Source: Escherichia coli (lineage in GTDB: Bacteria > Pseudomonadota > Gammaproteobacteria > Enterobacterales > Enterobacteriaceae). Taken from it: a stretch of 64,000 nt of DNA. The notes under the pieces were generated by a model. It searched no databases. It was not told where the DNA came from and was given only the letters and a program-made list of their open reading frames with translations. Positions 4,595 through 43,828 of the stretch are shown here, piece after piece; positions within the stretch are counted from its first letter, which is position 1; the number at the start of each line of letters is the position of its first letter. The stretch is from assembly GCF_003334315.1 (NCBI RefSeq), contig NZ_QOWR01000018.1; one strand, given 5' to 3'. The translations under genes and the position numbers were made by a program.

Positions 4595-5977
4595 TTATCC
4601 CACCAGCATCCAGGTCGCCGGAACTGAGGCAATTAACAGCATGCCAATCAGCACCATTTCCTGACGGTTCAGTACATTATCATGGGTATGCGTTTTGCGC
4701 GCGTACAGGAAAACCAGCAGCCCCGGTGCATACAGAACAACGGATAACAGCAAGTGCATTGGACCAGAGGCGTACAATAACCATAAGCCATAAATGCAGG
4801 CACCGACACCTACCGCTTTATGCAGTGGACGGGTTGCGATTTTCAGCAAGAACGCGCCGACCAGGAAATAGGGCACCAGAATCATTTCTGAGGCGATGGT
4901 CAGCAACGTGTTGTAATCGGAACCGGTCAGCCAGATGAGTACCAGACAAATTTGCACGCAGATGTTGGTCAACCACAGTGAGGCGGATGGCGCAGCTTGT
5001 GCGTTCTGGCGCGCAAAAATGCGCGGGAATGCTTTATGAGTGGCGGCCAGGAACGGTACTTCTGCTGCCATGATGGTCCAGCTTAAGTACGCGCCGCAAA
5101 CGGAAACGATCAAACCGGCAGCGATGATGATTTCGCCCCATGGTCCCATCATTTCCACCATCAGACCGGCCATTGACGGGTTACGAATTTCAGCCAGTTC
5201 AGGACGTGCCACCACACCCAGCGAAAGCAGCGTTACCAGCAAGTAAACGCCCAGAGCGGAGAGAACCGCCAGCAGTGTCGCTTTGCCAACATCACGTTTA
5301 TTACGCGCACGCGCAGAAACAACCACGGCACCTTCCACACCAATGAAAACCCACAGGGTGATCAGCATGGTGTTTTTCACCTGTTCCCAAACGGGTACGC
5401 CAAGTGCAAGTCCGGTGAAGTCGAGCTTGAAGGTATCCAGTTTGAACATCATCATCGCCAGCACAACAAACAGACCCAGCGGCAACAATTTTGCCAGTGT
5501 CGCCACCAGGTTAATGCTGGCAGCGGTTTGCACCCCGCGCAGGATCAAAAAGTGAACAATCCACAATAAAGCCGATGCACCGACTATCGATTGCCAGGTA
5601 TTACCATCGCCAAACAGGCGCAATTCCGGCGTGTCCGTAAAAAAGCTTAACGCGGAAAAAACGATCACCAGATAGGAGACGTTGGCGATGACTGCGCACA
5701 GCCAGTATCCCCATGCGGAACAAAAGCCGATTAGCTCGCCAAACCCTTCGCGGGCATAGGTAAAGATACCGCCGTCAAGTTCGGGACGAATGCGCGTGAG
5801 GATCAGCATGGCAAAGGCCAGCAATAAAATGCCAGCGCCAGTAATACCCCAGCCGATGAGCAGTGCTGCCGGGCTGGCAACTGCCGCCATATTTTGCGGC
5901 AGACTGAAAACACCCGCGCCCAGCATTGAGCTTAATACCAGCGCGGTGAGTGCGCTCAGTCCCAGTTTCTTTTCCAT
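4595..5977 (-). CDS. ydgI: APC-family amino acid antiporter YdgI (arginine/ornithine antiporter-like)
   Basis: 460 aa polytopic membrane protein; synteny. Confidence 0.88.
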   Translation of the reverse strand: MEKKLGLSALTALVLSSMLGAGVFSLPQNMAAVASPAALLIGWGITGAGILLLAFAMLILTRIRPELDGGIFTYAREGFGELIGFCSAWGYWLCAVIANVSYLVIVFSALSFFTDTPELRLFGDGNTWQSIVGASALLWIVHFLILRGVQTAASINLVATLAKLLPLGLFVVLAMMMFKLDTFKLDFTGLALGVPVWEQVKNTMLITLWVFIGVEGAVVVSARARNKRDVGKATLLAVLSALGVYLLVTLLSLGVVARPELAEIRNPSMAGLMVEMMGPWGEIIIAAGLIVSVCGAYLSWTIMAAEVPFLAATHKAFPRIFARQNAQAAPSASLWLTNICVQICLVLIWLTGSDYNTLLTIASEMILVPYFLVGAFLLKIATRPLHKAVGVGACIYGLWLLYASGPMHLLLSVVLYAPGLLVFLYARKTHTHDNVLNRQEMVLIGMLLIASVPATWMLVG

Positions 5978-32695: not shown

Positions 32696-32806
32696 ATGAC
32701 AATAGAAAAACACGAAAGAAGCACTAAGGATTTGGTGAAAGCAGCAGTATCGGGATGGCTGGGCACTGCGCTTGAATTTATGGATTTCAAGAGTCATGCG
32801 TGTTAA
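32696..32806 (+). pseudogene. ydfJ: 5' fragment of MFS (MHS-family) transporter gene ydfJ, truncated at the prophage junction
   Basis: MTIEKHERSTKDLVKAAVSGWLGTALEFMDF... then premature stop as the sequence becomes phage-like; in K-12 ydfJ is the Qin insertion target. Confidence 0.6.
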
Positions 32807-32825: not shown

Positions 32826-34121
32826 TTAATTTTTCATTGCTTCGTTATGGGGCATGGTTGGGGCAAACTCGCTTAACTGTGTATTTAACAAAGCTACCTG
32901 TGCATTATTGTTTTCAGACATCCATTTTCCGTATACCTGAAATACCATTTGCGCATCTGCATGGCCCATCTGGTTTGCTATAAATGCCGGGTTAGCACCA
33001 GCTGTCAGCGACCAGCAGGCATAAGTATGTCTCGACTGATATGATTTTCGATGGCGGAGTCCGGCACGTTTTATCGCTGCGTCCCACATCTGCCTTATTG
33101 AGTCAACGGTAAAATGGTCACCATAATTTTTTACTCTCGCTGACACTTCAGGTTGAAAAACAAAGGTGCATTTTTGTTTTTCTGTTCTGCCATACTCTCT
33201 GAGGTGAACATCAATGATATGCTCTTTGCTCAGTCTCGTTAATGTCATCTGGCTCCGGAGAGCGTCGATTGCTGGCTTAATAAGATGAATGACCCGATTG
33301 GTTCCCGCCTGTGTTTTTGGTACCGTGAAACGGTCTTTTGCTAAATTTCTCCTGATCATCATTGTTCCATTTTTCAGATCTATGTCCTCCCATCCAAGTG
33401 CACACAGCTCACCAGGGCGAACGCCAGTATAAACAGAAACACACCATAAATTTTTTGCTTGCTGATTTCTGCACGCATCGATAAGACGGATAAATTCCTC
33501 CCGCGAAAGAGGATCCGGAATGGTTCTTGATTCCTTTAATGGCGAGATCCCCTTAAGCGGATTATCTGGCAGGTAACCGTTATCAACACCAAACTGGAAC
33601 ACGGCGTTAAGATTTGTCATGTAATTATTTACAGTTACAGCCGATCGCCCTGGTTGTGTAACAATATAGTTACTTTTGGGGATCTGGTATCCAGTCAGTA
33701 GCTCTTTACGAACCTCCAGTAATTTTTCTTTATTAATCGATGAGGCAAGATTTTTTTCACCGATTATGCTCAGGATATTTTTGATGACGGCACGGTATGT
33801 GTTGAGTGATGTTTTGGCGACTTCAGTTTCTTTCAGTGCCAGAAATTTTTCAGCCAGTTCTTTTATGGTTAAATCTTGTCGGGCCTCACCAAATTTTTCC
33901 AGATTGCGTGAGGAGGGAAACTGTTTTGCATAGTCGAAAACACCAGTTTTTATTGCGTAACAAACAGAGGAGCGTAGTTCACCTGCAACGCGCCTGTTTT
34001 TTGCTGTGTCAGGAACCCCCAGATTTTCCCTGACTCTTACGCCTTTATAAACAAACCAGATACGTAATTTCCCTCCATGGTTTTCCACGCCTGTCGGATA
34101 TTTCATTTCAACTTCTCTCAT
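32826..34121 (-). CDS. phage integrase, tyrosine recombinase (probable start at MKYPTGVENHGG)
   Basis: C-terminal catalytic motifs (R...HxxR...Y region: RHRKSYQSRHTYACW); sits at the prophage edge. Confidence 0.85.
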   Translation of the reverse strand: MREVEMKYPTGVENHGGKLRIWFVYKGVRVRENLGVPDTAKNRRVAGELRSSVCYAIKTGVFDYAKQFPSSRNLEKFGEARQDLTIKELAEKFLALKETEVAKTSLNTYRAVIKNILSIIGEKNLASSINKEKLLEVRKELLTGYQIPKSNYIVTQPGRSAVTVNNYMTNLNAVFQFGVDNGYLPDNPLKGISPLKESRTIPDPLSREEFIRLIDACRNQQAKNLWCVSVYTGVRPGELCALGWEDIDLKNGTMMIRRNLAKDRFTVPKTQAGTNRVIHLIKPAIDALRSQMTLTRLSKEHIIDVHLREYGRTEKQKCTFVFQPEVSARVKNYGDHFTVDSIRQMWDAAIKRAGLRHRKSYQSRHTYACWSLTAGANPAFIANQMGHADAQMVFQVYGKWMSENNNAQVALLNTQLSEFAPTMPHNEAMKN

Positions 34122-34464: not shown

Positions 34465-36936
34465 TTAAGAATCAGCCTGACTCGGGATCAGTTTTTGCCA
34501 GATAACTGAAACGTATTTTGCCTGGTAACGGGCGTCATCAAGTGCATTATGGCGCTCACCTTCGAATGGAATAGCCGTTCTGGCATCGAAGTCTATGGCT
34601 TTCCCCAGCTCAACGATTGTGCGTACATCGCGATCGTTGTAGTAACGCCACGGGCAGGGGATCCCCTGCCGTTCGTATGAACGGCGCAAAATCGTGTTGT
34701 CGAAGTTGGCTCCATTTCCCCAAACCTGAACAAAAAATTCACCGGAGTTTTCGTCGATAAATTCCCGCAATTGTAACAGTGCATCATCTAACGGGATTTC
34801 ATCGGTCATAATGGCAGATTGCGCTTCGCGTGATTGCTTAAGCCACCATTTAATGGTGTTCCGATCAATGACTCCGCCAGCAGTTTCCAGATCGATAGTC
34901 TTACTAAATTCCGGTCCCATATCTCCGGTTTGCGGATCGAAAAATATTGCACCTATTGAGATGATCGGGGCATCAGGATTTTTTCCCATGGTTTCAAGGT
35001 CGATCATTAGATGGTCACACGTCCTGCTGGTGGATGTGATTTCGTGATGACCGTTCACCTTAATTGAGTGATCTGCCGTCTCGCCAGTTTCATTATCGCT
35101 ATTGTGATGCTGATTGCCGCCAGTGTTCTCCTTGTGTGGATGTTCAGCGCCTTCCATTTCCTCCGGATCATCTTCCTGAACTTCAACCTGATATTCTTCA
35201 TCGAATGTTTCTTGATATGTTGCGTCGCCCATCACCGCGCCACAATCAGGGCAGTTGCCGCCGCCGGTCTGACCGCAGGCGGTGCAGACTTTTTCCACTT
35301 CCTGTTGCGCCACTGGTTCAGGCTGTTTCGTTTCTGGCTCGTTTTGTAACGCATTTGTGCTGTTTTGTTCCGCTTTTTGGTAGTTCCGTTCCGATTTATG
35401 CTGGTTCTGGTTCACAGAATCGCGGGTCTGGATCCCCTTAACCCATTTCGGATCATTCGGGTCACTAATCCCTTCAACAAATTCACCACGTGATGCAGCA
35501 AGCAACTTATCGGCGTCAGGCTGGCTGATATTGGCTGCCTGCATAATTTTGTTTACTTCGTCAGCGGTAACTTTTATCGGCTCTGGTTGTTCTGAATCTT
35601 CAGCGGTATCTACATTTTGCGGTAAGCCCGTGTATGTGCCATTTTTTCGGGCAAAATATTCTTCTTTTGTGATTTCAGTGGCGCCAGCAGCCAGTGCCTT
35701 ATCCAGACCAGAAAGTTTGTTTGCGCGACCGTATTTTTCTCCGTCCTTATCTGCGAAGAGGAAATAGAACGGCCCCTCACGCTCTACAGATGGTTCAGCT
35801 TCCGGCGCGGTTTCATTTTTTGGGATATCAGATACCTCAGTTTCCACTGCATCAGTTTGTGTTTCTGATGACTGGAGAACATCAACAGTGCCCAGGTCTG
35901 TTTCTTCATTCTCAAACACGCCCTTTGTCGTCAGGTATTCGCAGATATATTTGTTCAGTGCTATGGGATCTTTGTGAATGTCGATCGGACGCTCACGGAC
36001 AAGGCCAAAAATAGTCTGGCGGTCGTAGCGAAGGGCATCAGGCTGTTTGCGCATTGATGCCGAGATACGCTTCCAGTCTTCGCGGTCGTTGTCGATAACT
36101 TCTTTTTTTGCCCAGCGATGGATGCTGCCGTCAATGTTTCCGGCATCCACATCACCAGGCCAGAGAGCGTAGGCCAGTTCGTCATCCAGTGTTTTCCATG
36201 TCTGCTTGTATTCGCGATGAATGGCAGCAATGACCGGGCTGATTTTTCCTGTTGAATTTTCAGTGTACTGTTGATTGGCTCTGGCGCGGGCGAGATCAAC
36301 AACAGACGTGTATTTTCCGGTTTCCTTGCGTTCACCTTCGCGACGTTTTTTCCAGATGCGCATCTCTGCCTGAATTTCGGGCCATTTAGCACCAGGAATA
36401 CATTTATGCTTAACCCACCCAATGGCGTGCAACTTAAGCTCCGGATACATGGCGTTAACTTCTGGCATTTTCATCAACGCTTCAACGATATGTCCGTCGA
36501 ATGTTGCCATGTCTTCCTGCAACAATTCCTGTGCGCTAATAACCATATCAACGGTGATGTTTTCACATGTGTCGAACTTAACCATGACAGCGTTCTGTAC
36601 TTCAGGGGCCAGCTTGTCAAAAGTGACGTTCATCGGATCGGATTCAGTCTCAACCGGGACAAAAGAAGCAGACTCCTCATCCCAGCGGTTTTCCTGCATA
36701 TATTCAGCATCCCATGAATCGAGGGCAGGGCGGGGTATGCCAGGTTTATCCTCGCAGACAATAAATTTATAAGCGCAGTCCTGAGCAGCCGGATAATGTT
36801 CCAGGAACTGCCAGTGAAATTTTGCTCGAGCACGGCGTTCGTCGCCAGCTTCAATGGCTGTGGCTACAGCCACAGCGCCTTCTTCCCTTGTTGCCAGTTC
36901 GTCAGGAATAGCGGCGCAAATAAAGACTTTACTCAT
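34465..36936 (-). CDS. RecE-family phage exonuclease with a C-terminal DnaQ-like (DEDDh) 3'-5' exonuclease domain
   Basis: C-terminus has Exo I (MIDLETMG), Exo II (GANFDNTIL) and Exo III (HNALDDARYQ) motifs; central DKLLAASRGEFVEGISDPNDPKWVKGIQTRD segment recalled from RecE. Confidence 0.7.
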   Translation of the reverse strand: MSKVFICAAIPDELATREEGAVAVATAIEAGDERRARAKFHWQFLEHYPAAQDCAYKFIVCEDKPGIPRPALDSWDAEYMQENRWDEESASFVPVETESDPMNVTFDKLAPEVQNAVMVKFDTCENITVDMVISAQELLQEDMATFDGHIVEALMKMPEVNAMYPELKLHAIGWVKHKCIPGAKWPEIQAEMRIWKKRREGERKETGKYTSVVDLARARANQQYTENSTGKISPVIAAIHREYKQTWKTLDDELAYALWPGDVDAGNIDGSIHRWAKKEVIDNDREDWKRISASMRKQPDALRYDRQTIFGLVRERPIDIHKDPIALNKYICEYLTTKGVFENEETDLGTVDVLQSSETQTDAVETEVSDIPKNETAPEAEPSVEREGPFYFLFADKDGEKYGRANKLSGLDKALAAGATEITKEEYFARKNGTYTGLPQNVDTAEDSEQPEPIKVTADEVNKIMQAANISQPDADKLLAASRGEFVEGISDPNDPKWVKGIQTRDSVNQNQHKSERNYQKAEQNSTNALQNEPETKQPEPVAQQEVEKVCTACGQTGGGNCPDCGAVMGDATYQETFDEEYQVEVQEDDPEEMEGAEHPHKENTGGNQHHNSDNETGETADHSIKVNGHHEITSTSRTCDHLMIDLETMGKNPDAPIISIGAIFFDPQTGDMGPEFSKTIDLETAGGVIDRNTIKWWLKQSREAQSAIMTDEIPLDDALLQLREFIDENSGEFFVQVWGNGANFDNTILRRSYERQGIPCPWRYYNDRDVRTIVELGKAIDFDARTAIPFEGERHNALDDARYQAKYVSVIWQKLIPSQADS

Positions 36937-37029
36937 TTTGTTTTAACCTCATGACAGATTTAAGGATGAACAAATCCCTGCCATTGCTGGCATATAAGAA
37001 TGAAACCGGATATTTATTACGGAACTGTT

Positions 37030-37221
37030 TTAAAGACCTGCCGGGATTTCGATATTATCCTGGTGAATAACTTTATCGACCGGGTAACAGTTACCGGGAA
37101 TTTTCTGTTCGGTTGCTGCAGTCATACACTCCTGCATTGTCCTGTGAACACTGACTGCAATATCAACTGGCTCTCCGGAAACAAGAAAAACTGTCAGAAC
37201 AAGCGCAAATGCTGAATTCAT
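37030..37221 (-). CDS. ydfD: YdfD-like small lysis-associated protein (63 aa)
   Basis: MNSAFALVLTVFLVSGEPVDIAVS...; 4-nt overlap with dicB stop. Confidence 0.7.
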   Translation of the reverse strand: MNSAFALVLTVFLVSGEPVDIAVSVHRTMQECMTAATEQKIPGNCYPVDKVIHQDNIEIPAGL

Positions 37222-37406
37222 TGTGCACATCCTTTTGGCATCAGACGTAAACGAGCCAGCATTGAAACAATGCATATTTTATTTAATAGCTCCCGTTCTT
37301 GTTTTCTCTTGTTAATGGCATCTTCAGTAAATACAGGGTTACTGATAGTGACACCAATTTCAAAACAACCTTCAGACGTATTAACGTTTGGTAATAACGT
37401 TTTCAT
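37218..37406 (-). CDS. dicB: cell division inhibitor DicB (62 aa)
   Basis: MKTLLPNVNTSEGCFEIGVTISNPVFTEDAINKRKQERELLNKICIVSMLARLRLMPKGCAQ matches DicB as recalled. Confidence 0.85.
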   Translation of the reverse strand: MKTLLPNVNTSEGCFEIGVTISNPVFTEDAINKRKQERELLNKICIVSMLARLRLMPKGCAQ

Positions 37407-37580
37407 TATCGCGTCCTCAACAATGAATTTTGTGATGCAGTGCCTGGTGCCTCCAGGTGACGTTAACCAGTTAACAATTAACGCCGGATACAGAGAATCC
37501 ACCCATAACACTGTTTTTGGTTTTAACTGTTCCGCGTGCGCTTAGCCGCATTCACCGCATCACAAAATTCACTTTAAAAA

Positions 37581-37633
37581 CGGCGGCAGAGCAGTCACGG
37601 AGTAAAACTGATACCGCCAAACGTCACCAGAAA
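37581..37633 (-). ncRNA. dicF: DicF small regulatory RNA (ftsZ-targeting) with its 3' T-run
   Basis: Reverse complement reads TTTCTGGTGACGTTTGGCGGTATCAGTTTTACTCCGTGACTGCTCTGCCGCCG followed by TTTTT, matching DicF as recalled; located upstream of dicB. Confidence 0.85.
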
Positions 37634-37908
37634 ATTGATAACAGAGGGCGTTGCAGCGGGGTTGTCACTTAAGCGTATGGTCAACCTGACAACTCGGTGT
37701 CCTCAACGGGGAAGGAATAACCCCGCCATACTTACCGCCGCGCCATTTCGCGGGTTGCCACAACCGGAAGCGCACGGTCGAATTAAATTTAACGACACCG
37801 TACAGTGAGACGAACTTCGCCGTGCGCTTTCGTGTTGTGTGCCTGCTTTTAACCACGTCAGGCGAGGTGGTATCCTTCTTATTCCGAATAACCAAGAAGG
37901 AAATCTAT

Positions 37909-38109
37909 ATGACTAAAGAAGAATTTGTCTCTTATATTTTTGATAAAACGGTTGAAATGTATGCCGCTACTTACGGGTCCTGTAATCCTCTGAATAAACC
38001 AGAGGGGAAAGATGATTTCGACAAAATTTACCGCTTCTTGGAGGACCGCTATATCAAAAGGTTAGAGGACGCAGGGATCAAATCCCCAGTGAAGTCACCA
38101 TTGTCCTGA
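37909..38109 (+). CDS. hypothetical 66 aa protein, antisense to the dicB operon
   Basis: ATG at 37909 preceded by AAGGAA RBS; MTKEEFVSYIFDKTVEMYAATYGSCNPLNKPEGKDDFDKIYRFLEDRYIKRLEDAGIKSPVKSPLS. Confidence 0.4.
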   Translation: MTKEEFVSYIFDKTVEMYAATYGSCNPLNKPEGKDDFDKIYRFLEDRYIKRLEDAGIKSPVKSPLS

Positions 38110-38455
38110 GAACTTGCAGGACGTCATGATCGTAACTTCCATCCAAACCGCGACGGCAAATTGCTTCTCGTATTACCGGAAGCAGTTCGCTGGAAATCTC
38201 GGTGCATATTTCACCTGCTAATACGCCTGGCTCAAGTGAGAATATTGGTGAACTTACGGTCTTGGTCTCGACAGTTTCAGAGTCAGTGCCAACATTATAA
38301 AGCTCAACGAAAGCGGTCTTGATTTTCCGGGCCAGATCTTTTGCTGGCTCGCTTGCAATATCTTTCCCGATTTCTCGCAGCACAGAATGCAATGTATGAG
38401 CTGCTGTTTTCTGTACATCAGACGGTAAATCTTTAAATTCCATCGTCAGCCTCAT
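38078..38455 (-). CDS. hypothetical 125 aa protein in the dicB operon (position of K-12 ydfB/ydfC)
   Basis: ORF between ydfA-like gene and DicF on the operon strand. Confidence 0.5.
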   Translation of the reverse strand: MRLTMEFKDLPSDVQKTAAHTLHSVLREIGKDIASEPAKDLARKIKTAFVELYNVGTDSETVETKTVSSPIFSLEPGVLAGEICTEISSELLPVIREAICRRGLDGSYDHDVLQVLRTMVTSLGI

Positions 38456-38607
38456 CAGTCAGTGTTTCTGGCTAACCAGCAACGCGCGCCAGATTCGGTT
38501 TTAAACGTTTTGCTTTTGGTATATGTCATCGCGGTGAACGTACCGTCCTGGTTGGGGAACACGCCACATACCAGAGATTCGCTGTTGCCAAGATCGATAG
38601 TATCCAT
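38455..38607 (-). CDS. YdfA-like small protein (50 aa)
   Basis: First small ORF downstream of the Ob-like operator; MDTIDLGNSESLVCGVFPNQDGTFTAMTYTKSKTFKTESGARCWLARNTD. Confidence 0.5.
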   Translation of the reverse strand: MDTIDLGNSESLVCGVFPNQDGTFTAMTYTKSKTFKTESGARCWLARNTD

Positions 38608-38721
38608 GCTGACCTCATTTCCCCTTAACGCCGGGGTAGCGGAACTGTTTGCTGAGAACACCGTGCGGTGTGTTGATGGAGGTAATTTAGTTTTCTCATT
38701 ATTTTTCGTCAAGGTTTTTTG

Positions 38722-38735
38722 ATGAGAAAACTCAA
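38722..38735. promoter_or_regulatory. operator-like palindrome (candidate DicA site Ob) upstream of the ydfA-dicB operon
   Basis: TGAGAAAACTCAAGTATTG, near-identical copy of the motif at 39258-39276. Confidence 0.55.
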
Positions 38736-38799
38736 GTATTGGCGCAAGATAAAGCCAATACATTGAAATGTAAGGCTTTAAAATTTTGTGAAGGGATGA

Positions 38800-39207
38800 T
38801 TATTGATGCTTGTTGCGTTTGCGAGCCTCTAATAGCTCGGTGAACAGGCGATTAAAATTCTCAACGCGGGCGCGGAGTTCGCTGAGTTGTGCTTGTTGCT
38901 CTGATTTAGGAAGTGCGCGATACAAACGCAGCATCTCTAACTCATCTTCCGATAAGTCTAAGGCACTATCGAGTGAAACAGGGGGAGCTGGTGTTTTGTC
39001 CTCGTCGCCAAACAGTATCCAGGTTGGTGAACATTGCAATACCTCGGCGAGGCGATGCAAATTTTGCCCACGCGGGGCTGTATGGTCACTTTCCCATAAT
39101 GAAATTGATGAGCCAGATACGCCAGCAGCTTTGCTTAAACCGTTTTGACTTAAGCCTACCTGCTTACGTCTTTCTCTAATGCGTTGACCTAAAGTTTTCT
39201 CGTTCAT
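38800..39207 (-). CDS. dicA: DicA repressor (XRE-family HTH, 135 aa from MNEKTLGQRIRERR)
   Basis: HTH motif and conserved LQCSPTWILFGDEDK segment recalled from DicA. Confidence 0.85.
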   Translation of the reverse strand: MNEKTLGQRIRERRKQVGLSQNGLSKAAGVSGSSISLWESDHTAPRGQNLHRLAEVLQCSPTWILFGDEDKTPAPPVSLDSALDLSEDELEMLRLYRALPKSEQQAQLSELRARVENFNRLFTELLEARKRNKHQ

Positions 39208-39257
39208 ATTTAGATATCTTAATAACCCTTGACTTGAGATTCCTTGAGTGATTAGCA

Positions 39258-39271
39258 TTGAGAAAACTCAA
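39258..39271. promoter_or_regulatory. operator-like palindrome (candidate DicA site Oc) in the dicA-dicC divergent region
   Basis: TTGAGAAAACTCAA inverted repeat between divergent dicA and dicC starts. Confidence 0.55.
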
Positions 39272-39284
39272 TATTGGAGGTGCG

Positions 39285-39512
39285 ATGTTTAAATCAGACG
39301 TAATTAATTTTTACGGTACGAAAGCCAAAGTAGCGAAAGCTGCTGGCGTTGACCCATCTGCTGTTTCTCAATGGCAAGAGCTGGTTCCTGAAGGTCGCGC
39401 GATGCGTCTACAGGAGGCATCTGGCGGGGAGCTTCTGTATGATCCCAAGGTTTATGACGAATATCGTAAGACGAAGCGGGCGGGGCGGTTGAACAATGAA
39501 AATCACTCCTGA
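39285..39512 (+). CDS. dicC: DicC (Cro-like regulator), ATG with GGAGGT RBS
   Basis: C-terminal LVPEGRAMRLQEASGGELLYDPKVYDEYRKTKRAGRLNNENHS as recalled for DicC; divergent from dicA. Confidence 0.75.
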   Translation: MFKSDVINFYGTKAKVAKAAGVDPSAVSQWQELVPEGRAMRLQEASGGELLYDPKVYDEYRKTKRAGRLNNENHS

Positions 39513-40017
39513 ACAGGCTCGTGAGGCTCTGGATGCCTGGATATGTCGACCAGGAATGACACAGGAGCAGGCGACGATATTAATCACTGAAGCATTCTGG
39601 GCTTTGAAAGAGCGCCCGAACATCGATGTTCAGCGTGTCACAGATGAAGGTGGCGCGGTTGATCAGCGAGCGCTTGGCGTTAATCGAGTGAAGATATTCG
39701 AACGCTGGAAGGCTATCGACACCAGGGATAAGCGTGAAAAGTTCACGGCGCTAGTGCCTGCAATTATGGAGGCTATCCGGATTAATGATTTCAGGTTGTA
39801 TCGTGAAATTAGTGACGGAAAAAGCATCACGTACATGATCGCCGGGTTAAACAAAGAATATGGCGATGTGGTGGAGTCCGGACTGCTTTTTGCTGATCCT
39901 GCCGTAGTGGATCGTGAAACTGACGAACTTATAGAAAAAGCAATTGCTTTCAAACTTGCGTATCGACAGCAATACCAACAAAAAGCTGGATGGAATTATG
40001 AGCCTTCTTTTTGCTGA
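39496..40017 (+). CDS. YdaT-like early-region protein (173 aa)
   Basis: Position immediately after the cro-like gene; weak resemblance to Rac YdaT. Confidence 0.45.
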   Translation: MKITPEQAREALDAWICRPGMTQEQATILITEAFWALKERPNIDVQRVTDEGGAVDQRALGVNRVKIFERWKAIDTRDKREKFTALVPAIMEAIRINDFRLYREISDGKSITYMIAGLNKEYGDVVESGLLFADPAVVDRETDELIEKAIAFKLAYRQQYQQKAGWNYEPSFC

Positions 40018-42947: not shown

Positions 42948-43204
42948 ATACAGCGAACTCCATTGGTTTAGTTGGATATTTACTGTGCTGGACAAAACGG
43001 TTTGCGGGGAAATCTTAGTTAAGTAGAATGACTGCGGGTACTTGAGGCTATCTGCCTCGGGCACGAACACCAACGGCAGGTAGAGAAAAGCCCCAGTTAA
43101 CATTACGCGTCCTGCAAGACGCTTAACATTAATCTGAGGCCAATTTCATGCTAGACACATGTAGGTTAGCCTCTTACGTGCCGAAAGGCAAGGAGAAGCA
43201 GGCT

Positions 43205-43360
43205 ATGAAGCAGCAAAAGGCGATGTTAATCGCCCTGATCGTCATCTGTTTAACCGTCATAGTGACGGCACTGGTAACGAGGAAAGACCTCTGCGAGGTA
43301 CGAATCCGAACCGGCCAGACGGAGGTCGCTGTCTTCACAGCTTACGAACCTGAGGAGTAA
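43205..43360 (+). CDS. hokD: Hok-family type I toxin (HokD/RelF-like, 51 aa)
   Basis: MKQQKAMLIALIVICLTVIVTALVTRKDLCEVRIRTGQTEVAVFTAYEPEE; upstream in-frame leader ORF from 43148 (mok-like). Confidence 0.85.
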   Translation: MKQQKAMLIALIVICLTVIVTALVTRKDLCEVRIRTGQTEVAVFTAYEPEE

Positions 43361-43576: not shown

Positions 43577-43828
43577 ATGATGAACATCGAAGAACTGCGT
43601 AAAATTTTTTGTGAAGATGGCCTCTATGCTGTGTGCGTTGAAAATGGAAATCTTGTTAGTCATTACCGCATTATGTGTTTGCGAAAGAATGGGGCTGCGT
43701 TAATTAATTTTGTGGATGGTCGAGTGACAGACGGATTTATCTTGCGCGAAGGTGAGTTTGTCACTTCATTACAGGCACTGAAAGAGATCGGAATAAAAGC
43801 AGGCTTTTCAGCTTTTGCAGAAGAATAA
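43577..43828 (+). CDS. rem: Rem-like prophage protein (83 aa)
   Basis: Size and position between hokD and ydfU as in K-12 Qin. Confidence 0.55.
   Translation: MMNIEELRKIFCEDGLYAVCVENGNLVSHYRIMCLRKNGAALINFVDGRVTDGFILREGEFVTSLQALKEIGIKAGFSAFAEE

Follow-up and report, generated by a model that had tools for sequence, protein, structure and literature searches.

The closest described relative of the locus studied here is the dicA/dicC-dicBF division-inhibition module of Qin, a prophage of Escherichia coli K-12. In K-12, the repressor DicA binds the operator Oc (TTGTTAGTCATAACTAACAA), a 20-bp inverted repeat where one base change is enough to prevent binding in vivo (Yun et al., PMC3441716), and three operator-like sequences have been described in each of the dicA-dicC and dicA-dicBp intergenic regions (Ragunathan et al., PMC10448788). 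Derepression of dicBp in K-12 is brought about by the antirepressor Rem, and a functional phage, mEp460_ev081, has already been noted to carry dicB, dicF, dicAC, and rem (PMC10448788). Earlier publications cover the DicA/DicC-dicBF module, its lambdoid logic, and its occurrence in a functional phage, and the steps after transcription considered below are not new. Here, we analyze the corresponding interval in a stretch of 64,000 nucleotides from E. coli (assembly GCF_003334315.1, contig NZ_QOWR01000018.1), referred to throughout as the window. We conclude that this interval is very probably where a lambdoid prophage of the mEp460_ev081/HannyBb type has its immunity switch and its early-left (PL-type) operon.

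Mosaic structure relative to K-12 Qin

The dicA/dicC-dicBF region of the window is a mosaic relative to K-12 Qin. The K-12 locus was fetched with its annotation and aligned to the window by blastn with a word size of 7, and the segments so delimited are listed in Table 1. The backbone around DicF and dicB, the ydfA-like gene with its leader, and the remainder of dicC are in common with K-12, whereas the slot that holds ydfC and ydfB in K-12 has no match, and neither does the immunity cassette, apart from one short stretch inside dicA. Homology to K-12 resumes at 38678, at about the start of the predicted leftward transcript. The genes for DicA, DicC, DicB, and YdfD, the RNA DicF, and the ydfA-like gene are all present and complete according to Rfam, NCBIfam, PHROGs, and identity to K-12, much as a first-pass annotation made from the sequence of the window had recognized. 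These identities, like the boundaries of the mosaic, are observed directly in the alignments.

The immunity cassette, comprising the operators, DicA, and the helix-turn-helix (HTH) of DicC, is a specificity allele other than that of K-12. The repressor of the window is 57% identical to K-12 DicA and matches only HTH-type families in NCBIfam and PHROGs. The regulator DicC is 70% identical to its K-12 counterpart, and the differences are concentrated in its N-terminal HTH. The two genes are divergent, the start of dicC (39285) lying 78 bp from that of dicA (39207).

Putative operators of a heteroimmune DicA allele

The 13-mer TGAGAAAACTCAA occurs exactly at 38723-38735 and at 39259-39271, which agrees with the repeated motif that the first-pass annotation had located at 38722-38741 and 39258-39276. 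With up to one mismatch, it has three matches in 64 kb compared to 0.13 expected, and none of 100 shuffles reached three. The third copy (38686-38698, one mismatch) is inverted. The core of the motif is a perfect palindrome, TTGAG-AAAA-CTCAA. If two mismatches to TTGAGN4CTCAA are allowed, the pattern is not enriched across the window (23 matches found versus 30 expected), and five of the 23 fall in the two short intergenic regions on either side of dicA. Significance attaches to the clustering and to the strong sites alone, and not to the degenerate pattern.

We propose that these five matches are the operators of the window repressor, and name them OL1 and OL2 (left) and OR1 to OR3 (right; Table 1). 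The two palindromes noticed originally are both real, but they are joined by the strong inverted copy OL1 and by the two weaker sites OR3 and OR2. The (g)TATTG tail that had been counted as part of the motif is not conserved in two related copies of the cassette (L016 and L017), and the unit is a 14-bp palindrome. The arrangement is that of lambdoid immunity regions, with dyad sites overlapping both the divergent promoters (OR) and the leftward promoter (OL), although OR2 and OR3 are weak. OL1 is placed over the -10 element and spacer of the predicted dicB-operon promoter, and OL2 upstream of its -35 element, because of where the consensus scan puts that promoter, which has 9 of 12 consensus matches and is predicted rather than mapped. 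The layout of the predicted dicC promoter matches that of the K-12 dicC promoter.

Each site has a counterpart elsewhere. OL1 lies at the position of TTAGCCATGACTAA in K-12, where two Oc-like sites, 35 bp from each other, flank the -35 element of dicBp. The centers of OL1 and OL2 are 36 bp apart, as are those of the equivalent pair in phage PPompW_132418 and in strain ZY22049. OR1 coincides in position with K-12 Oc (core TTAGTTATGACTAA). OR3 corresponds to K-12 Oa (TTAGCTAATGCTAA) and to a perfect site, TTAGGTAATTCTAA, in PPompW_132418 and ZY22049. The center of OR2 is 25 bp from that of OR3 and 24 bp from that of OR1, and PPompW_132418 has a good site there; OR2 is the weakest of the five assignments. 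A search of the two intergenic regions for other repeated palindromes found none, and a literature search for the motif string gave no matches.

The alleles of PPompW_132418 and ZY22049 were read alongside those of K-12 and the window, and in all of them, palindromes with 5-bp arms and a 4-bp spacer occur at the same five positions. The K-12 allele combines the recognition helix HVSVSQWER with the half-sites TTAGT and TTAGC (Oc core TTAGT-N4-ACTAA). The alleles of PPompW_132418 and ZY22049 share the helix HVTISQWER, in proteins that are otherwise divergent, and have the half-sites TTAGA and TTAGG. In the window, the helix is GSSISLWES and the half-site TTGAG. Across the four alleles, neither the format nor the position of the sites varies; what changes along with the helix are the inner bases of the half-site. 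The K-12 locus lacks the window motif, and no Oc-type motif occurs in the immunity region of the window. Because this region has no Oc-type site but TTGAG half-sites, and because the recognition helix differs, we assign the window repressor to the DicA family but to a different immunity allele.

A conservation footprint points in the same direction. In an alignment of the window with L016 and L017 (cassette copies about 90% identical, whose DicA is 96% identical with no change in the HTH), 2 of 70 operator columns are variable, compared to 30 of 79 other intergenic columns (P of about 1e-5 by our own count and a rough binomial). The two variable operator columns are in the spacer of OL2, of which the other 13 of 14 columns are invariant, and at the last base of the weak arm of OR2. 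OR1, OR3, and OL1 are invariant, and the 8 bp adjacent to OL1 are almost all different. The variable columns outside the operators include the -10 element of dicC and the bases immediately after OR1 and OL2.

Could the repeated motif have arisen without any role in repressor binding? It might be a by-product of the duplication of promoter DNA between OR and OL, or a promoter or UP-like element. OR1 and OL2 do share bases beyond the palindrome (TATTGG), as a duplicated stretch would, and the degenerate pattern lacks enrichment across the window. However, the shared tail is not conserved in the related copies whereas the 14-bp palindromes are, OL1 is inverted and has no similarity in its flanks, and the palindromes of four alleles differ in sequence but agree in format and position. 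We consider such an origin very improbable.

In lambda-type switches, the repressor and Cro use the same sites. This raises the question of whether the palindromes are mainly targets of the Cro-type DicC, or of a host factor, with the window DicA recognizing something else. The HTH half of DicC is also within the exchanged cassette, and DicA and DicC share an identical in-frame stretch of 14 nt, encoding KAAGV, in helix 2. Sharing of sites by both proteins is, however, the rule in lambdoid switches and not an alternative to repressor binding. OR1, the strongest site, occupies the place of Oc, to which DicA binds in K-12 (PMC3441716), and the two intergenic regions offer the repressor no other repeated palindrome. 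A locus in which DicA ignores these sites seems to us very unlikely.

The stretch in common between DicA and DicC is itself unusual. It is a perfect 14-nt inverted repeat (39119-39132 and 39336-39349) that supplies the in-frame K-A-A-G-V codons of both HTHs, at residues 26 to 30 of DicA and 18 to 22 of DicC, with a chance expectation of about 1e-3 for 800 bp. The K-12 DicA/DicC pair does not have this repeat. It may go back to gene conversion, or to a shared origin of the two HTHs, which would read the same operators.

The identification of the five sites as operators of a heteroimmune DicA allele is supported by their position, dyad symmetry, and clustering, by the footprint, and by covariation with the recognition helix. 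We favor this reading because the half-site changes with the helix and because the sites are conserved while their flanks vary. The original proposal of repressor operators holds to that extent, but the sites are heteroimmune and not of the K-12 type. Several points weigh against our reading. In K-12, the equivalent sites Om and Oa were not bound by DicA in an in vivo assay (Yun et al., PMC3441716), and because of this, the weak sites of the window may serve DicC or nothing. With two mismatches each, OR2 and OR3 are individually at chance level across the window. Both promoters are consensus matches only, and the footprint rests on three related sequences. The effect of Rem is known for K-12 DicA only, to which the window DicA is 57% identical. 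Operator binding, promoter use, and Rem action at the window allele are predictions from sequence.

TABLE 1 Segments, genes, RNAs, and predicted sites of the locus and its surroundings, in order of position in the window
Feature	Position	Strand	Comparison or description
Integrase, left end of prophage	32826-34121	-	
Exonuclease, full length, 823 aa	34465-36936	-	K-12 has an IS2-truncated ydfE remnant there
Segment: DicF/dicB backbone (exonuclease start, ydfD, dicB, DicF, and ~220 nt upstream)	36900-37850		97% identical to K-12 (blastn)
ydfD (lysis protein YdfD, DUF1482), 63 aa	37030-37221	-	62/63 identical to K-12; phrog_1092, E=1e-36
dicB, cell-division inhibitor, 62 aa	37218-37406	-	62/62 identical to K-12
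DicF small RNA with terminator hairpin and U-run	37581-37632	-	RF00039
Long RNA hairpin upstream of DicF, untranslated	37757-37842	-	Minimum free energy fold, z=-2.8
Segment: accessory cassette (ORF66 and ORF121), slot of K-12 ydfC and ydfB	37851-38463		No K-12 match (blastn)
ORF66, 66 aa	37909-38109	+	phrog_34441, full length, E=1.5e-50; good Shine-Dalgarno sequence
ORF121	38078-38443	-	Reading frame open to 38455 (125 aa, 38078-38455)
ydfA-like gene (DUF1391), 50 aa, first of dicB operon	38455-38607	-	phrog_751, E=5e-35; DNA 91% identical to K-12 ydfA
Segment: ydfA and leader	38464-38678		91% identical to K-12 (blastn)
Segment: immunity cassette (OL, dicA, OR, HTH-coding half of dicC)	38679-39383		No K-12 match (blastn) except 38977-39042 at 82%
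Predicted dicB-operon promoter (PL analogue)	38684-38712	-	-35 TTGACG, 38712-38707; -10 TAAATT, 38689-38684
OL1, TTTAGTTTTCTCAT	38686-38699		Over -10 and spacer of predicted dicB-operon promoter; one mismatch to the 13-mer
OL2, ATGAGAAAACTCAA	38722-38735		10 bp upstream of -35
Hairpin AAAGCC...GGCTTT, just 3' of dicA stop	38751-38779	-	Read from the sequence
DicA-family repressor, 135 aa, without S24 peptidase domain	38800-39207	-	NF007257, 239.4 bits (cutoff 101), 1-135/135
OR3 (weak), TTTAGATATCTTAA	39209-39222		Abuts dicA start codon; two mismatches to TTGAG-N4-CTCAA
Predicted dicC promoter (PR analogue)	39229-39258	+	-35 TTGACT, -10 TAGCAT; consensus scan
OR2, TTGAGATTCCTTGA	39234-39247		In spacer of predicted dicC promoter; one good half-site, two mismatches
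OR1, TTGAGAAAACTCAA, perfect palindrome	39258-39271		Begins at last base of dicC -10
DicC-family Cro-like regulator, 75 aa	39285-39512	+	NF007282, 165.3 bits (cutoff 130), full length
Segment: remainder of dicC and onward	39384-39600		98% identical to K-12 (blastn)
Hok/Mok-like ORF, just upstream of Rem as in K-12 Qin	43148-43360	+	
Rem homologue, 83 aa, likely antirepressor	43577-43828	+	96% identical to K-12 Rem

Proposed mechanism and prophage context

The locus probably works as follows. A short, noncleavable repressor of the DicA family (cI type) and a Cro-type regulator of the DicC family would be transcribed divergently. Dimers of the repressor would most likely occupy the 14-bp sites, each made of two 5-bp arms around a 4-bp spacer (consensus TTGAG-N4-CTCAA), so that OR1 to OR3 would cover the dicC promoter and the start of dicA, and OL1 and OL2 would bracket the promoter of the leftward operon. 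In this state, dicC would be silenced together with the operon that comprises the ydfA-like gene, ORF121, DicF, dicB, ydfD, and the genes for exonuclease, excisionase (xis), and integrase (int). Release of the repressor, probably by the Rem antirepressor encoded 4 kb rightward or else by another signal, would allow the operon to be transcribed. DicF would then be processed from the leftward transcript and block translation of ftsZ, and DicB would inhibit division through MinC. The steps that follow transcription are taken from the K-12 literature (PMC5069750 and PMC10448788), in combination with the sequence identity to K-12.

Because the repressor has no S24 domain, induction mediated by Rem is the most likely route. 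A short repressor and the gene for a small, likely antirepressor are found on the same element. Rem is 96% identical to its K-12 homologue while DicA is only 57% identical, which suggests that Rem targets a conserved part of DicA.

The prophage starts near 32773 with integrase, excisionase, and exonuclease genes, and it is most similar to phages HannyBb (98%) and mEp460_ev081 (96%). Since the exonuclease is full length and int and xis are present, the module lies in an apparently complete phage early region and not in a decayed remnant. The immunity cassette is found in 797 of 5,426 complete E. coli genomes (~15%), 204 copies being 90 to 95% identical.

The consequences for the field are small, as this is a published kind of system with a common non-K-12 immunity allele. 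The explicit operator model does predict that results obtained with K-12 DicA, such as Oc binding and titration, are not transferable at the level of DNA recognition. Induction mediated by Rem may be transferable to strains of the window type.

An accessory cassette in the slot of ydfB and ydfC

The slot between the first gene of the PL-type operon and the precursor hairpin of DicF is clearly a site of cassette exchange. It contains ydfB and ydfC in K-12, ORF121 and ORF66 in the window, a 99-aa gene with ydfC and the pair ORF135/ORF77 in O157-type prophages, and ydfB with a reverse-oriented membrane open reading frame (ORF) in phage HannyBb.

For the window, the first-pass annotation had reported a single ORF of 125 aa between the ydfA-like gene and DicF. 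That frame exists, but ORF66, on the opposite strand, had been overlooked. The real start of the longer gene is probably the ATG at 38443, because residues 5 to 125 of the frame align with positions 1 to 121 of the 121 in phrog_33007; a GAGG located 7 nt upstream of this ATG and the 121-aa call by the Prokaryotic Genome Annotation Pipeline (PGAP) agree.

The annotation had also suggested that ydfB and ydfC of K-12 are a split version of this ORF, and this idea is refuted. The K-12 alignment gives no DNA homology over 37851-38463, a BLASTP comparison of the 125-aa ORF with concatenated YdfB and YdfC gives no alignment at an E value of up to 100, and the best match in a tblastn search of all frames of the K-12 locus has an E value of 0.39. 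The families differ as well (phrog_33007 versus phrog_2061 for YdfB and phrog_1744 for YdfC). In a Salmonella locus (L007), a YdfB homologue (73% identical) is encoded directly upstream of an ORF121 homologue as a separate gene, and O157-type prophages have ydfC alongside another ORF121 family member. Annotating ydfB and ydfC as fragments of the 121-aa gene would be a mistake.

These results bear on a simpler view of the whole locus, in which it is the same DicA system as in K-12, with K-12-type operators and an ORF that is the ancestral, unsplit form of ydfB and ydfC. Gene order matches that of K-12, DicF-dicB-ydfD is 97% identical, and the ORF occupies the ydfB-ydfC slot. Yet DicA, at only 57% identity, differs in its recognition helix, the operator motifs are reciprocally absent, and the ORF has no similarity to ydfB or ydfC in any frame, belongs to a different PHROG, and stands next to a YdfB homologue in Salmonella. 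We regard this view as scarcely credible and retain that of a mosaic with a heteroimmune switch.

ORF121 has full-length homologues, 74 to 92% identical, in Salmonella and Enterobacter. Its first 50 or so residues (MEFKDLP...AFVELY) form a conserved domain and are followed by a variable C-terminal domain; this N-terminal domain also heads proteins with mutually unrelated C termini. A HMMER scan of 1.84 billion representatives with this domain yielded only 29 proteins, all short and without known domains. One of these, P0053 (204 aa), has two MEFKDLP-type N-terminal domains in tandem.

ORF66 converges on ORF121, and their 3' ends overlap by 32 nt. It is annotated by PGAP in strain CP53 and also in phage mEp460_ev081, and it has homologues down to 54% identity in which the first 16 residues are almost invariant. 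In a four-way DNA alignment counted by hand, its frame has about 14 synonymous and about 14 nonsynonymous variable columns, and because the resulting ratio of nonsynonymous to synonymous rates (dN/dS) is about 0.3, ORF66 is consistent with a real gene. A consensus scan predicted no promoter for ORF66; a possible extended -10 element, TGgTATCCT (37868-37876), is weak, and we do not claim it.

The geometry of the pair is kept in Enterobacter, in Salmonella, and in another metagenomic prophage. In two Enterobacter loci (L005 and L006), it lies behind S24-type repressors and without ydfA, and in two from Salmonella (L007 and L008), it lies upstream of kilR. Elsewhere, the partner of ORF66 has a different N-terminal domain with a related C-terminal domain (L010), or only a remnant of the C-terminal domain accompanies the ORF66 homologue (Cedecea, L011). 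At a coverage of at least 80%, the cassette is present in 392 of the 5,426 complete E. coli genomes and in phage mEp460_ev081.

Searches for function returned little. Neither protein had a match in PADLOC at an E value of up to 1, ORF121 and 12 family members had none in Pfam below 0.1, and PHROGs gave only families of unknown function for both. A histone-like identity, suggested by the sole NCBIfam match (14 bits), was dismissed. The AlphaFold2 model of ORF121 is poor (predicted local distance difference test [pLDDT] score of 57). ORF66 is modeled as a helical hairpin (pLDDT of 81), for which Foldseek found no match with an E value below 1 in the PDB or BFVD.

Other gene pairs occur in the equivalent place elsewhere. 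In O157-type prophages, a convergent pair upstream of dicF (1367-1985 in L015, equal to 2786-3404 in L009) overlaps by 23 nt and encodes a 135-aa protein with a MEFKDLP-type N-terminal domain and an unrelated partner of 77 aa. At least two C-terminal types therefore have their own small convergent gene overlapping the 3' end, ORF66 here and ORF77 in O157-type prophages. In HannyBb (L018), the start of the ydfB-like gene is annotated as part of a fused 205-aa call at 5120-5737, and a membrane-type ORF of 106 aa lies on the opposite strand at 5138-5458; the deposited annotation at 5120-5737 is probably wrong.

What might such a pair do? It is possible, though we hold the idea only tentatively, that the proteins ORF121 and ORF66 together are an accessory system complete in itself, for example, one for exclusion or abortive infection, of a toxin-antitoxin-like kind, or for anti-defense. 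ORF66 would then have a promoter of its own that is active in the lysogen, and expression of ORF121 would await derepression. The pair has the same geometry in at least four repressor contexts and genera, ORF66 follows the C-terminal domain of ORF121 even where the N-terminal domain differs or is missing, other members of the N-domain family have other C termini, the O157-type prophages have another convergent partner, and HannyBb has a reverse-oriented membrane ORF in the slot. Against this stand the lack of matches in PADLOC and Pfam and of Foldseek matches for ORF66 at an E value below 1, the poor model of ORF121, and the scan that predicted no ORF66 promoter; moreover, conserved adjacency may reflect no more than a small cassette that moves as a unit. 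More speculative still, and on balance unlikely, is that the ORF121 family as a whole is a previously undescribed polymorphic two-component accessory system (for exclusion, toxin-immunity-like, or for anti-defense) of the repressor-proximal PL slot, with one partner made in the lysogen and the other only upon induction. Either way, ORF121/ORF66 is a defined, widespread, and uncharacterized cassette, and it is the element of this locus with some potential.

RNA elements of the leftward operon

DicF matches Rfam model RF00039 over positions 1 to 52 of 52 (72.5 bits versus a gathering score of 48, E=3.8e-15) and differs from K-12 DicF by 1 nt. It lies in an untranslated stretch of the PL-type operon, 175 nt upstream of the dicB start at 37406. 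DicB itself is a full-length match to NF049927 (132.8 bits versus a cutoff of 100) in NCBIfam. A subthreshold Rfam match to STnc100 (37374-37583, minus strand; 34.5 bits versus a gathering score of 47) extends over the DicF-dicB spacer into the beginning of dicB.

The long hairpin upstream of DicF is part of the backbone in common with K-12, between the accessory cassette and DicF. Differences from K-12 in its 5' arm remain paired as G-U, and there is one compensatory change, from C-G to U-A, in the Enterobacter locus L005, where the hairpin stands beside an ORF66 cassette. This hairpin probably marks a boundary in the PL transcript or a place where the transcript is processed; the latter is suggested by analogy with the K-12 literature (PMC5069750). 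The hairpin just beyond dicA is 100% conserved in L016 and L017 while neighboring intergenic bases vary, and it is probably a terminator that would insulate dicA from the OL region. A strict terminator scan over 37400-39400 called no terminator, the dicA-distal hairpin included, and by the rule of that scan, neither hairpin is therefore a classical terminator.

The conserved leader of the ydfA-like gene contains a further 14-bp palindrome, ACACCGTGCGGTGT, at 38658-38671, which would fall at about +7 to +20 if transcription starts as predicted. None of the four immunity alleles examined departs from this sequence, which might form a hairpin in the RNA or bind a factor that all four have in common.

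Comparison with known systems

Compared with K-12 Qin, the locus has the same gene order and orientation, DicF-dicB-ydfD backbone, and ydfA leader, a short noncleavable repressor, the same positions of OR and OL sites, and Rem a few kilobases rightward. It differs in the HTH residues of DicA and DicC, in the half-site (TTGAG here, TTAGT/TTAGC in K-12), in the replacement of ydfB-ydfC by ORF121/ORF66, and in having a full-length exonuclease together with int and xis. Phage mEp460_ev081 (LR597641) has the whole arrangement, including the int-xis-exo-ydfD-dicB layout and the ORF121/ORF66 cassette at 99.7% identity. HannyBb (PP925841) encodes a repressor 100% identical to that of the window, whereas its slot has a ydfB-like gene and the reverse-oriented 106-aa membrane ORF. 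Both are isolated phages, whereas the window holds a chromosomal prophage copy.

As in the immC regions of lambda and P22 (cI or c2 and cro), the genes for the repressor and Cro diverge, three dyad sites at even spacing (24 to 25 bp here) overlap the rightward promoter, additional sites lie at the leftward promoter, and immunity specificity is exchanged in a cassette along with the operators and both HTHs. In contrast to those regions, its repressor has 135 aa and no S24 self-cleavage domain, OL has no more than two detectable sites, which flank the -35 element with 36 bp between their centers, and its leftward operon has no recognizable N gene and carries DicF and DicB. The locus also resembles in architecture the GfoR/GfoA pairs of Gifsy-type prophages in Salmonella, which likewise combine a short repressor that lacks the Ala-Gly cleavage site with a small antirepressor encoded elsewhere on the prophage (PMC10448788).

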